64,000 bases of DNA from Escherichia phage vB_EcoM_EP57. This document shows positions 53,554 through 61,899 of this stretch, piece after piece. The stretch lies in the sequence record OR544956; one strand, 5' to 3'. The notes under the pieces are model-generated. The model saw only the letters and a program-made list of their open reading frames with translations, was not told the DNA's origin and did not search any database. A program made the translations under genes and the position numbers. Each line of letters begins with the position of its first letter. The stretch's first letter is position 1.

Positions 53554-53632
53554 TGGAGGCGGGAATTGGATTTGAACCAATGATCTCCAGCATATGAAAC
53601 TGGCGAGGACGACCAGACTCCTCTATCCCGCT
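53554..53632 (-). tRNA. tRNA with anticodon CAT (Met or Ile2)
   Basis: Manual fold: T-arm ATTGG-TTCAAAT-CCAAT, anticodon loop TTCATAT, CCA encoded; 1-72 is an A-C mismatch. Confidence 0.55.
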
Positions 53633-55440: not shown

Positions 55441-55515
55441 TGGTGGCCCTGGCTGGTTTCGATCCAGCTACCTATCGGTTATGAGCCGACAGCTCTCCCA
55501 TTGAGCTACAGGGCC
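55441..55515 (-). tRNA. tRNA with anticodon CAT (Met or Ile2), second copy
   Basis: Acceptor GGCCCTG/CAGGGCC, D-stem GCTC/GAGC, anticodon loop CTCATAA. Confidence 0.6.
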
Positions 55516-56915: not shown

Positions 56916-57332
56916 ATGAGATTTACAAGACAAGAGGTAGTTGTACTTGACGAAGCAATGACAATGATCGTCTTTTACTATGAGGATATCTTCTGTGCAG
57001 CATATCATTTAAATGATATTCAGATTGAATGGAAGCAGATAGCATTCCTGTTGGACAAGAGTAATCATTTGGATGGCTTTGAGTATTTGGAGTGGGATGG
57101 TGCAAAGGAAGTTAAAATTGTAGGGTTAAATCACGATCAGATTGTTGACATGCAATGTAAGTTGTGTCATTATCAGTTCTCAAACAATCCTGGCAACAAT
57201 TGTTCTGATTTTTGCCATGTGTGTGGTTCACGATGTTCTGGTAAGCTACTTTTGAAGACACAAGATGTGTCCTACAGCCGTGTTACGCTTACTGGCGACC
57301 ATACCCCAATCATGGAGTACGTAAAGAAATGA
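56916..57332 (+). CDS. Cys-rich hypothetical protein
   Basis: CKLCHY ... CHVCGSRC; taggaggctagaATG. Confidence 0.4.
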   Translation: MRFTRQEVVVLDEAMTMIVFYYEDIFCAAYHLNDIQIEWKQIAFLLDKSNHLDGFEYLEWDGAKEVKIVGLNHDQIVDMQCKLCHYQFSNNPGNNCSDFCHVCGSRCSGKLLLKTQDVSYSRVTLTGDHTPIMEYVKK

Positions 57333-58132
57333 GCAACTATCCAATTACAGGCGTAACCTATTCTTGTGTAGCAAAAGGTGGTTTATATACAGTAGTGGAA
57401 TTTCCAAAACCTGCCGGAATATCTAAAGTGTTTGATCCTGTGGTTATCTATGAAGATCTTAGAACAGGTCAACGTTACTGGAGATTTGTGAATGACTTTT
57501 TAGATCGTATGGAGGTAGTAAGTGGCGAAAACACCGAAGAAGTTATCAAAGCCAACGTTACTAAGAAACCGAAAAACGAGGTTCTCAAAGTAGCCAAATC
57601 AGTTCCTAAGAAAGATAAATTTGATACGGAGGCATTCGTCTTTGACACACCAATCGAGAAGATTGAAGAAGCGTTGCAACGTCTTGAGGAGCAGGAGGCA
57701 GATCCAATGGCTGAACCACTCGCTGAAGCAAAAAACATTGGTCGTTCCAATGAAACAACACCAGAAGAACAAGCTGAACTTGAAGCTTTTGCCAAATGGA
57801 CAAAACAGTTAAAGAATGGCTATTATAAAACAAAAGAAGAAGCTGAAAACCATGTTCCTTCCACACCAATGAAATGCCAGGATTATAAAGATTATCCTGA
57901 AAGGGTTGTGTTCCCTGGTTATGCACAATACAAACTGAACGGGTTACGTTCTATGATTAACATGAAAGGAGAGTGTTTATCAAAAGCTGGGGAAGTGTAC
58001 AACCTGCCACCTCATTGGAAAGGTATTCCAAACTTTATTAGTGAAGTTGTTGGTCATCCTCTTGATGGTGAAGTGTTTGCTGGGTTAGGTGTCCTTAGTC
58101 TGCAACAAATTAACAGTGCTTGCAGTAGTTGA
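57329..58132 (+). CDS. ATP-dependent DNA ligase-like protein, N-terminal and adenylation part; frame changes near 58090-58130
   Basis: Motif I-like YKLNGLR (KxDG-type with N in place of D) and motif III-like LDGEVFA. Confidence 0.45.
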   Translation: MSNYPITGVTYSCVAKGGLYTVVEFPKPAGISKVFDPVVIYEDLRTGQRYWRFVNDFLDRMEVVSGENTEEVIKANVTKKPKNEVLKVAKSVPKKDKFDTEAFVFDTPIEKIEEALQRLEEQEADPMAEPLAEAKNIGRSNETTPEEQAELEAFAKWTKQLKNGYYKTKEEAENHVPSTPMKCQDYKDYPERVVFPGYAQYKLNGLRSMINMKGECLSKAGEVYNLPPHWKGIPNFISEVVGHPLDGEVFAGLGVLSLQQINSACSS

Positions 58133-58592
58133 AGATTATGGTCTTGATGAGCTTATTTGTGTAGTTCATACAGAGTATATTGAAAACCAAGAACAGTTTG
58201 ATGCTTTCTATGAAAAAGCTTTACTTGAGAAAGCTGAAGGTGTAGTATATCGTAATGCTCACGGAGTTTACGAATTTGATAAACGTTCTTATGACGTTAT
58301 TAAACGTAAGCCTCGCCATACGCTTGAAGTTAAAGTAATAAATTCAAAAAGTGATAAAAATGGCGATGGAGTGTTGACAGGTGAGATGGAAAATGGTAAA
58401 GTAGTCGAATTCTTAATGCGTAAAGATGCTCATGAGACTATCAATTATCGTAAAGCAGAGAATGCTTCTACCTTGATTAATCAGTTCGTTGAAATAGAGT
58501 ATGAAGAATTTTCAGATGAAGGTATTCCAACAAAACCTGTTGGTGTTCGTATTCGAGAAATGATCCCAGGCACTTGGGAACCAGCAGAATAA
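58089..58592 (+). CDS. DNA ligase C-terminal part (motif IV/V and OB-fold region), +1 frame relative to 57329..58132
   Basis: EGVVYRN ... KPRHTLEVKV pattern typical of ligase motifs IV-VI. Confidence 0.45.
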   Translation: MSLVCNKLTVLAVVEDYGLDELICVVHTEYIENQEQFDAFYEKALLEKAEGVVYRNAHGVYEFDKRSYDVIKRKPRHTLEVKVINSKSDKNGDGVLTGEMENGKVVEFLMRKDAHETINYRKAENASTLINQFVEIEYEEFSDEGIPTKPVGVRIREMIPGTWEPAE

Positions 58593-59607: not shown

Positions 59608-60486
59608 ATGTTTGTAAAATCTTTTAAATCCGCTCTGCCTATGGTTGTTGGTGACAATGCTTCTGTAGCATCCCTTAACAGCATTACAGATATTCCTCTG
59701 GAATTTGTAACAGCAGAAGGCTCCCAGTCACACACTATTGGTCTTGTTCGTTTTGAAGATGACTCTAAATTTGTAAAAGAGTTCTCAGATCTTGAACTGC
59801 TTAATGTAGGTCAATCTGTGAAGAAGGTAGATAAAAAGAAAGTTAAACGTATTCTGAATGAACGTCTAGAAGAAATGCGTCAGGACATGGAGAGCGAAGG
59901 TAAAGAGTTTTATGTCGATAAAGAAGTAGTCAAAGCAATGAAGGAAGATATTGAATTTGCACTATTGCCTGAAACAGAACCTGAAGATTTCTTTAACTAT
60001 GTTGTCTTGGATAAAACTACGAATCTTCTTTATGTTCTTAATGGAAGTAAAAAGGTTGCAGAAGAGATTACTTCTTTCCTCCGTTCCGTTCTGGGGACTT
60101 TCCCTTCGGTAGGTTTTAGTGTGCATGAAGAAGCTATTGTAAAAGGTTTTGGTGAATTGCTGGAGAATCACGAAGCAGATCGTATTACTCTCGGAAATTA
60201 TATCAAAATGGAGGATAGCGAGGGCGTTGTTGTTTGGAGTAAAGAATCCCTATACGAGTCTAAAGCTGTCGAACTAAAAGAAGATGGTAAAGATGTTGTT
60301 GCAATCGGTCTTGAATATGACGGTGTTGTAGATTTTGTAGTGGATAAAGAGTTTAAACTTTCTAAACTACGTTTTCCGAAATATTTTGCAGACGAAGAAG
60401 GTAGTATTGAAGCTTCAGTCCTTCTGTGCTTCAATGAGATTCGAGGTCTGATGGAAGATTTAACCAAAGCAACAATCCTTAAATAA
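59608..60486 (+). CDS. RdgC-like recombination-associated protein
   Basis: About 290 aa; pattern resembling E. coli RdgC in the C-terminal half. Confidence 0.4.
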   Translation: MFVKSFKSALPMVVGDNASVASLNSITDIPLEFVTAEGSQSHTIGLVRFEDDSKFVKEFSDLELLNVGQSVKKVDKKKVKRILNERLEEMRQDMESEGKEFYVDKEVVKAMKEDIEFALLPETEPEDFFNYVVLDKTTNLLYVLNGSKKVAEEITSFLRSVLGTFPSVGFSVHEEAIVKGFGELLENHEADRITLGNYIKMEDSEGVVVWSKESLYESKAVELKEDGKDVVAIGLEYDGVVDFVVDKEFKLSKLRFPKYFADEEGSIEASVLLCFNEIRGLMEDLTKATILK

Positions 60487-60490
60487 GTTC

Positions 60491-60519
60491 TTGACTTGCG
60501 GGATTAGTTATGATATTAT
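60491..60519 (+). promoter_or_regulatory. Sigma70-type promoter (TTGACT-17-TATTAT)
   Basis: Near-consensus boxes, then aggagg and the ATG at 60559. Confidence 0.5.
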
Positions 60520-60548
60520 GCCTACCTACTTAATGAGGTAGGCTTTTT
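60520..60548 (+). terminator. Intrinsic terminator overlapping the promoter-proximal region (GCCTACCT ... AGGTAGGC then TTTTT)
   Basis: 8-bp stem followed by a T-run. Confidence 0.45.
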
Positions 60549-60558
60549 AGGAGGCGTT

Positions 60559-60768
60559 ATGAAAAAGATTCTGACAGTCGTTCTTTTAGCTTTTAGTTTC
60601 ACAGTAGCAGCAGGTCAAATTACTTTAATCTTGTCTGATTCTGAAGTTAATGGCAATACAAAATATTGCTACTATTCTAACGCTAACCAAGATGAAGTTA
60701 TAGCAATCCCGAAAAGTCGTCAATGTCCGTATACTAAAACATTCTCAACAGAGGATGACGATGAATAA
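60559..60768 (+). CDS. Small secreted protein (signal peptide, two Cys, acidic tail)
   Basis: MKKILTVVLLAFSFTVAAGQ signal peptide. Confidence 0.45.
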   Translation: MKKILTVVLLAFSFTVAAGQITLILSDSEVNGNTKYCYYSNANQDEVIAIPKSRQCPYTKTFSTEDDDE

Positions 60769-61209
60769 TTAGGGGGAAATATTAGCGGTTATATTTTAAT
60801 TAAGCCTGAAGATCTTCATTTATATGTCAACGAAGAAACAATAGCTGCAATTGATTATGATCAGATCGCTTTCCAAGCAGCGTCTGCATTAGAGAAAAGA
60901 ACAATCATTGCAAAGCACATCCCTTCAGGTGCTCAAAAGGAATTTAAAAATAAGACAGAGTTTTGGGGTAAAAGCAAGACTAAGATTGGAGGTTGGCTAG
61001 GAGATACAAATGCAGAAAGAGCCTCCAAAAACAAACGTCCCTTCACAAAGGAAGAGTTCGAAATCATTGATAAGCAATACCCGCCAGAAGATATCGGACA
61101 CACCTTCCAAGCAGCTAAAACAAAAGTCTTAGGTATTCTAAAACATCTACGTTTAGAAAAATATTGCGGAGTTATTGGCGTAGGAAAAACTTTCAGACAC
61201 GCCTTCAAA

Positions 61210-61899
61210 ATGCCTGTAGAATATAAATCTGAACGATTAGATATCAAACCACTTCAGCTTTCAGAAACCAAAGATTATCTTGTGGAGTTCCACAATGGTG
61301 ATGTTGTTACTGTAATAGAAGCTGATGATGAGTTAGAGAAGTATGGTTTCCAAGGTTATAAAGATTATAAAAGGACGGGTAAATTTTCTTATATCGTTGT
61401 ATCTATAGATAAAGATAGTTTACATACTCCTAGTATCCTTTTTAATTTCTACAAAGAGGATGGAGTATTTAAAAATCCAGATATAATTCTTATTGACGAG
61501 TCTATTGGCGATATATGGATCGTAGATAAAGGTAAAAAGAAAGAAGTTAAAGGTTGGGGCAGTTACTGGTTAGCATATCAGATGCTAATGGGAGATAAAA
61601 CAGATAGTATCCGACCTTATCAAGATTTTGATATTAAGTTCGGAGATATTACTTGTTTTAATCTTCTTTCAGCTTGTAAAACTCAAGCAGAACTTTTCCA
61701 AACAGTTAAAGACACTTACTACTCATGGTTCCCAGAGGGTGTTAATTTTACTTCTTGGGATGGAGAAGAAGTCCATATGACAACAGATGAATGGATAGAA
61801 ACAATTTTCCAGTTGGTATACATGAAACGCTGGGATAATGACGATACAACATTTGAGAGTATGCTTCAGTCATACATCTCGCAACAGGAGGCAGAGTGA
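61210..61899 (+). CDS. Hypothetical protein; the reading frame is open from 60769 with no canonical start before 61210
   Basis: Same frame as 60559..60768, separated only by the TAA at 60766-60768. Confidence 0.35.
   Translation: MPVEYKSERLDIKPLQLSETKDYLVEFHNGDVVTVIEADDELEKYGFQGYKDYKRTGKFSYIVVSIDKDSLHTPSILFNFYKEDGVFKNPDIILIDESIGDIWIVDKGKKKEVKGWGSYWLAYQMLMGDKTDSIRPYQDFDIKFGDITCFNLLSACKTQAELFQTVKDTYYSWFPEGVNFTSWDGEEVHMTTDEWIETIFQLVYMKRWDNDDTTFESMLQSYISQQEAE

Follow-up and report, generated by a model that had tools for sequence, protein, structure and literature searches.

The 64,000-nucleotide stretch of Escherichia phage vB_EcoM_EP57 that was analysed here (sequence record OR544956; hereafter the window) contains, at 60559–61899, a small open reading frame (ORF) followed in the same frame, after a single TAA, by an exonuclease frame with no canonical start codon in its first part. 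The source phage is a phAPEC8-like myovirus (Phapecoctavirus, Stephanstirmvirinae) with 99.6% identity to the phages nieznany and tuntematon. Below, we argue that 60781–61899 is most likely one intact gene of the flap endonuclease family, encoding a 5'-3' exonuclease with a predicted length of 372 amino acids, and that its translation very probably starts at the ATT at 60781. The features at the junction are as follows.

60549..60554, plus strand: Shine-Dalgarno (SD) sequence of the small ORF, AGGAGG (anti-SD duplex -10.2 kcal/mol)
60559..60768, plus strand: small ORF of 69 amino acids with an N-terminal signal peptide and two cysteines, ending in TAA (phrog_4641, function unknown, E=7e-27)
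60771..60776, plus strand: SD sequence of the exonuclease gene, AGGGGG (duplex -9.3 kcal/mol)
60777-60780, plus strand: spacer AAAT of 4 nucleotides (nt) between AGGGGG and ATT
60781..60783, plus strand: ATT, predicted initiation codon of the exonuclease (read as formylmethionine, fMet), from the comparison of junctions
60781..61899, plus strand: full-length coding sequence of the flap-endonuclease-type 5'-3' exonuclease, 372 amino acids plus TGA, by homology
61010..61132, plus strand: ORF of 40 amino acids in another frame, inside the N-terminal region of the exonuclease ('hypothetical protein' in phAPEC8 (gp266), vB_Ec-G1 and WPEC1)
61210..61212, plus strand: internal Met144 codon ATG, start of the annotated 229-amino-acid product, in a non-conserved alignment column and without an SD sequence

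An open frame without a canonical start and its junction across lineages

The layout reported in the first-pass annotation of this DNA is correct. The 69-amino-acid ORF ends with the TAA at 60766-60768, and the frame from 60769 to 61899 continues the frame of the small ORF (an offset of 210 nt) with 376 sense codons and a TGA. The description of the upstream product as a small secreted protein agrees with the annotation of its phi92 homolog, gp086, which carries a SignalP signal peptide with probability 1.0. Past the in-frame stop upstream, no canonical start is found before the ATG at 61210 (codon 148 of the open frame, and Met144 when counted from the ATT), which is the first in-frame ATG, GTG or TTG. 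Its lack of a good ribosome-binding site, also pointed out at first pass, is borne out by a best anti-SD duplex of +0.4 kcal/mol; 67 of the 68 annotated tuntematon genes have a stronger one.

Given the base composition of the window, the probability that 147 codons are free of stops is ~5e-5, and the probability that 147 sense codons contain no ATG, GTG or TTG is ~3e-4. No other stop-to-stop frame of 150 codons or more in the window comes close to this lead of 147 codons ahead of a canonical start, and by our own reading of the frame table the remaining leads of at least 40 codons overlap neighbouring or opposite-strand frames. Identity across the junction is at least 98.5% in the 60 Phapecoctavirus records listed of the 64 that match, which rules out a sequencing error and identifies the arrangement as a real, stable feature. 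Within the exonuclease gene, codons 1-143 (60781-61209) contain no ATG, GTG or TTG and the remaining 229 codons contain eight, while relatives have one to six; the absence from the first 143 codons is probably due to chance.

To place the start, the junction was compared across 14 lineages with a non-canonical codon (given L numbers below where they are not named after a phage) and two outgroups. Each line gives the SD sequence, the spacer and the codon at the homologous start position.

CR3-like (Certrevirus), outgroup: GAGGAG-TGAGTA-ATG GGT TAT, encoding M-G-Y-P
rV5-like, outgroup: AGGAGG-GTCT-TTG AGT, a canonical TTG
Window (phAPEC8-like): AGGGGG-AAAT-ATT AGC GGT TAT, encoding M-S-G-Y-I-L-I-K
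phi92-like: AGGAGG-TAAT-ATT
Klebsiella 05F01-like: AGGAGG-AAAG/AAAA-ATT
phiWec179-like: AGGGGG-AATT-ATC
L005 and L012: AGGAGG-5 nt-ATC
L015: TAGGAGGAG-TAA-ATC, with an in-frame TAA directly 5' of the ATC
L029, L030, L031 and L032: GGGAGG, AGGAGG, AGGAGG and AGGGGG, respectively, then 4 nt and ATT
L016 and L034: AGGAGG-4 nt-ATA
L017: AGGAGG-TTTA-CTG

The ATT at 60781 aligns with the ATG of the CR3-like phages and the TTG of the rV5-like phages. Across the 14 lineages, which have diverged to ~48% identity, the homologous codon is ATT in seven, ATC in four, ATA in two and CTG in one, and is never canonical. All 14 have an SD sequence of the AGGAGG/AGGGGG type 4-5 nt before this codon. As the in-frame TAA of L015 stands directly before its ATC, initiation further upstream is impossible in that lineage. 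In a neighbour-joining tree, the 14 non-canonical lineages form a single clade that is sister to the rV5-like and CR3-like phages, and more distant clades (Nankokuvirus, Pakpunavirus, Barbavirus, ICP1 and J2-1) have ATG or GTG behind an SD sequence. A conserved alternative canonical start was not found in the relatives, where the first canonical in-frame codon is scattered over codons 7 to 143. In tuntematon, an anti-SD duplex as strong as or stronger than that at the ATT is found in only 24 of the 68 annotated genes, and the spacing at the ATT is typical of the best sites in this phage. The early suggestion of a non-canonical start such as the ATT at 60781 is supported by this comparison, and the same start is already annotated in phage ESCO13 (see below).

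Coding status and identity of the first 143 codons

A tblastn search with the 376-codon translation matched 1,208 phage records, 900 of which were covered over at least 80% of the query, and metagenomic homologs of 357-373 amino acids align from the first few residues of the frame. In alignments of 25 and 40 sequences, D25 and D27 (numbered from the ATT) are invariant, as are many further positions before Met144. The invariant or nearly invariant acidic residues in these alignments are D25, D27, E180, D182, D183, D210, D212, D272 and D275. In all ten comparisons with diverged relatives, the proportion of synonymous differences (pS) in the N-terminal 143 codons was 0.65-0.90, versus a proportion of nonsynonymous differences (pN) of 0.16-0.39, with similar values in the C-terminal part. 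The 143 upstream codons are under purifying selection, are coding and form part of the exonuclease. The possibility that homologs naturally start at the methionine at 61210, raised in the first-pass annotation as grounds for dismissing an upstream start, does not hold, as the alignment of homologs begins at residue 1-5 of the open frame, and the column of this methionine contains L, M or A.

The translation of 376 amino acids matches the 'exonuclease' family phrog_107 over residues 14-371 (E=7e-56). A Pfam scan of the same translation returned no family at E<=0.01, including the 5_3_exonuc families, and a sequence-profile search against the PDB gave no match for the exonuclease protein. As PHROG 107 is the only match and no Pfam family is found, membership of the flap endonuclease family rests on the fold. 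An AlphaFold2 model computed on the alignment has a mean predicted local distance difference test score (pLDDT) of 94.5, and has the PIN-like alpha/beta core with a helical DNA-binding region that is typical of T5 exonuclease and T4 RNase H. In this model, residues 1-143 form strands 5-7, 21-25, 39-46, 52-55, 93-100 and 127-137, as well as several helices. Conserved carboxylate clusters of the metal-binding type are present, one of them at the end of strand 21-25. In the family of the T5 flap endonuclease (FEN) and T4 RNase H, a catalytic aspartate ends the first strand, and by analogy D25 and D27 are probably equivalent to the T5-type catalytic residues. According to the model, a product of 229 amino acids starting at Met144 would be without D25 and D27 and without part of the central sheet.

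Compared with known flap endonucleases and 5'-3' exonucleases (T5 D15 exonuclease, T4 RNase H, E. coli ExoIX and mycobacterial FenA), the exonuclease of the window has an identity of only 12-20% and exceeds them in length by ~100 residues, with insertions located at about residues 40-125. The exonucleases of the Vequintavirinae (rV5-like and CR3-like phages) are full-length orthologs with 40-42% identity that share its N-terminus and SD spacing. They differ in having a canonical TTG or ATG start and other upstream genes (transposase-like and HNH endonuclease).

Alternative readings of the junction and the mode of initiation

The shared frame in the window raises the question of whether the small secreted protein and the exonuclease are joined in one polypeptide, by readthrough of the TAA or with a recent substitution having created the stop; a substitution was the second alternative of the first-pass annotation. 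A database protein (P0005) also looks like a fusion of the two. However, one or more stops lie between the genes in every lineage examined. In the window, 12 nt separate the upstream stop from the start, compared with 5-15 nt in the relatives. The offset in frame from this stop to the start is 0 in the window and in L005, L012, L015, L016 and L029, as well as in L017 and L031 when read by eye from the printed junctions, and it is 2 in the phi92-like, phiWec179-like and 05F01-like phages and in L030, L032 and L034. In four of these six offset-2 lineages (phi92-like, phiWec179-like, 05F01-like and L032) the upstream gene is the small ORF, which there lies in a different frame from the exonuclease, and in L030 a methyltransferase gene takes its place. 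In L015, the second in-frame TAA directly before the start means that two in-frame stops separate the ORFs. The same-frame arrangement with a single stop that readthrough would entail is not conserved among the relatives; it is a true description of the window, but the frame shared by the small ORF and the exonuclease is incidental when the lineages are compared. P0005, a predicted protein of 444 amino acids from L005 in the Logan assemblies, has Q at the site of the stop; it was rejected as a fusion because its contig has a real TAG and translation of the locus does not yield the query. A comparable origin is probable for P0056 (MNNQGG...), with TAG translated as Q by the gene caller; P0005, and the look of P0056, suggest a gene caller that applied an alternative code. 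The variable offset, the two stops of L015 and the artefactual nature of P0005 lead us to reject readthrough, frameshifting and a recent stop-creating substitution. A signal peptide on a DNA nuclease is also implausible on general grounds, and we consider the chance of a joint polypeptide to be practically negligible.

Almost all Phapecoctavirus records place the start at the ATG at 61210, the first canonical codon, and if they are right the exonuclease has 229 amino acids and 60769-61209 is non-coding or a relic. This is very improbable, as that ATG has neither an SD sequence nor a conserved methionine column, and as the 143 codons before it are conserved in hundreds of phages, evolve under purifying selection and contain the invariant D25 and D27 and core strands of the FEN fold. 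The annotators of phi92 themselves flagged their truncated call with 'No RBS identified; weak Prodigal statistics'. The 147 codons without a canonical start might also be taken as the mark of a gene in decay, a pseudogene whose start codon has been lost. We give this even less credence, since the frame is intact in all lineages with pN far below pS in both halves, and the non-canonical start is common to a whole clade diverged to ~48% identity that has kept a strong SD sequence at a fixed spacing. Another nearby non-canonical codon is a somewhat less remote prospect, though still an unlikely one: several in-frame ATT codons lie within six codons of 60781, and some relatives could begin 7-10 codons further in. 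The ATT codons at 60793 and 60799 have poor SD pairing and spacing (-5.5 kcal/mol at 15 nt and -2.4 kcal/mol, respectively), residues 5-7 form a strand in the AlphaFold2 model, and only the position of 60781 combines a constant SD distance of 4-5 nt in all lineages with a match to the methionine of the sister clades.

If translation starts at 60781, the AUU would be read by the initiator fMet-tRNA, with the AGGGGG 4 nt upstream positioning the ribosome at a start that lies 12 nt past the TAA of the small ORF. A set of four near-cognate codons, AUA, AUC, AUU and CUG, supports initiation in E. coli at 1-2%, or at 0.1-3% depending on the construct, of the level of AUG (Hecht et al., bioRxiv 10.1101/063800). 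The four codons found across the clade (ATT, ATC, ATA and CTG) are exactly this set. The only confirmed AUU-initiated genes of E. coli, and its only confirmed non-canonical starts, are infC and pcnB (Hecht et al., bioRxiv 10.1101/063800; PMC2268962), and initiation factor 3 (IF3) discriminates against near-cognate codons and also affects re-initiation (PMC2268962). As codons of the AUU class are weak (~0.1-3% of AUG) and subject to discrimination by IF3, the output of exonuclease relative to its mRNA would be expected to be low and sensitive to IF3.

The same ATT could be used mainly through termination-reinitiation, in which ribosomes that finish the small ORF are held by the adjacent SD sequence and restart, so that exonuclease output is coupled to the upstream ORF. 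The 12-nt distance from stop to start in the window falls within the range of a few to ~20 nt in which such coupling would be expected. Our script detected a preceding ORF in 12 of the 14 lineages, with its stop 5-15 nt before the start and often overlapping the SD sequence (TAGGAGG), and in the other two, L017 and L031, the same TAA was read by eye from the printed sequence. The close spacing holds even where the upstream gene is a different one (the methyltransferase of L030), and re-initiation in E. coli, which uses initiator tRNA, IF2 and IF3, is helped by an SD sequence (PMC2268962). On the other hand, a short distance from stop to start is common in compact phage genomes, and the ATG/TTG outgroups have it too. 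RNA folding of 60735-60835 indicated no significant structure that would block the SD sequence and start or prevent de novo initiation (z = -1.4), and the SD sequence at the ATT is strong enough for direct binding of the 30S subunit. Re-initiation as the main route is a possibility that we hold to be a minority one.

Several observations weigh against initiation at the ATT, or against selection acting on it. Our literature searches turned up no N-terminal peptide, ribosome-profiling or reporter data for any member of the clade, and we infer initiation at the ATT, low output and, likewise, that weak output is a selected property. For E. coli, a 4-nt spacer is rather short, though in this phage it is usual, and there are the further in-frame ATT codons at 60793 and 60799. 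L030, L031 and L034 have an ATG without an SD sequence 7-10 codons past the SD-linked ATT or ATA, which gene callers have picked; in these lineages the first few residues may be dispensable, or both the SD-linked codon and the later ATG might be in use. Finally, the start codon has undergone only ~5-6 independent changes, which makes selection against ATG suggestive and not statistically proven. The double change between the ATA of L016 and the CTG of L017 was considered as a case of compensatory evolution, but it is unremarkable, as these lineages, at 79% nucleotide identity, differ by two bases or more in 34 of 365 codons.

The retention of a weak codon through a clade diverged to ~48% identity suggests selection for low nuclease expression. 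A more specific proposal is that the weak start at 60781 is a selected regulatory device, in which a second-tier codon behind a near-perfect SD sequence directly after the upstream stop would hold the exonuclease at ~1% output and make it responsive, in the infected cell, to the availability of IF3 or to translation of the upstream ORF. We put this forward tentatively and regard it as rather doubtful.

Annotation, neighbouring genes and significance

Of the 60 Phapecoctavirus records listed, 58 have the small ORF as their sole annotation across the junction or no annotation there at all, and every one of these 58 that we inspected starts the exonuclease at Met144 (229 amino acids). The severity of the mis-annotation in Phapecoctavirus is explained by the absence of ATG, GTG and TTG from the first 143 codons. 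Three inspected records (phAPEC8, vB_Ec-G1 and WPEC1) add the 40-amino-acid ORF at 61010-61132, and WPEC1 adds one more. As the coding frame that encloses it is conserved and evolves under purifying selection, the ORF at 61010-61132 is most likely a spurious call that fills a false gap. In the records of Justusliebigvirus (phi92-like; L006, L007, L023 and L024), the ortholog begins with a GTG (codon 33-34) inside the invariant DYDQ-V motif, and its first 32 residues, D25 and D27 among them, are lost.

The putative exonuclease of phage ESCO13 (YP_009786567.1; KX552041.2 / NC_047770.1) is the same gene with one residue different, is 372 amino acids long and begins with MSGYILIK. Its record gives the homologous ATT as the start together with a ribosome-binding-site feature, as annotation only; the ESCO13 paper neither mentions nor justifies an ATT start. 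When the M- and I-initiated 372-amino-acid products of the window and of one phi92-like phage were looked up by exact sequence, neither was in the collection, while a cluster look-up returned the ESCO13 entry. In the literature on phAPEC8, Phapecoctavirus and ESCO13 in combination with start codons, we found no discussion of an ATT start. The ATT start is already present in one annotation (ESCO13) and is undocumented in the searchable literature, and the clade-wide pattern of ATT, ATC, ATA and CTG appears not to have been described before, within the limits of the literature searched.

The gene order on the plus strand is an RdgC-like gene, a promoter-like site with a terminator-like hairpin, the small ORF, the exonuclease frame and the gene of a DNA-polymerase exonuclease subunit. 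The features flanking the junction are the following.

59608-60486, plus strand: RdgC-like recombination protein (Pfam RdgC match)
60491..60519, plus strand: promoter-like site TTGACT-17 nt-TATTAT, TG-extended, with 10/12 matches in a consensus scan (pattern match only)
60520..60548, plus strand: terminator-like hairpin GCCTACCT-loop-AGGTAGGC with TTTTT behind it (a putative terminator in the annotation of phage Schickermooser)
61896, plus strand: GTG start of the DNA-polymerase exonuclease-subunit gene

The promoter-like site lies upstream of the group formed by the small ORF, the exonuclease and the polymerase-exonuclease genes. The hairpin is directly 3' of this site and also 3' of the RdgC-like gene, and transcripts from the promoter would begin within or past it. 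Judging from this layout, the element at 60491-60548 may end transcripts of the RdgC-like gene while launching the next operon. At the other end, the TGA of the exonuclease (61897-61899) overlaps the GTG of the polymerase exonuclease-subunit gene as GTGA (61896-61899), an overlap that suggests translational coupling of the latter gene.

Two further observations were made elsewhere in the window. The ATP-dependent DNA ligase at 57329-58592 is divided over two overlapping ORFs (57329-58132 and 58089-58592), where tuntematon has a single coding sequence of 371 amino acids. The split stems from a deletion of 107 nt, which is not a multiple of three, and the first ~400 nt are unrelated to the N-terminus in tuntematon; the split ligase may represent a pseudogene or a mosaic module, or else an artefact of the assembly. 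The phage also has two tRNAs with a CAU anticodon. The one at 53554-53632 (minus strand) has an initiator-like A1·C72 mismatch atop the acceptor stem, but its anticodon stem is without the run of three G:C pairs. The second, at 55441-55515, resembles E. coli tRNA-Ile2. A link between these tRNAs and near-cognate initiation is speculative.

By analogy with E. coli infC (encoding IF3) and pcnB (poly(A) polymerase I), the exonuclease gene has a predicted AUU start behind an SD sequence, from which low, IF3-sensitive initiation would be expected. Unlike infC, it encodes a phage nuclease and not a translation factor, so that no autoregulatory loop is implied. Unlike both genes, its start was deduced from comparative data, and the codon drifts between AUU, AUC, AUA and CUG within the clade. 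The case is most likely one of AUU-class initiation of the infC/pcnB kind, in a protein that belongs to the flap endonuclease family by its fold, and involves no new mechanism.

In practical terms, nearly all of the GenBank and RefSeq entries inspected truncate the exonuclease, to 229 amino acids in Phapecoctavirus and by 32 residues in Justusliebigvirus. These calls lose the conserved pair of aspartates and part of the fold core, and leave a false intergenic gap of 440 nt. The interchange of four second-tier codons within one clade, at a fixed SD geometry, offers a natural test case for near-cognate initiation, discrimination by IF3 and nuclease dosage. If the weak start is indeed a regulatory device, a potentially toxic 5'-3' exonuclease would be held at a low level in these phages, and the gene would be a phage counterpart of start-codon control of the infC type.

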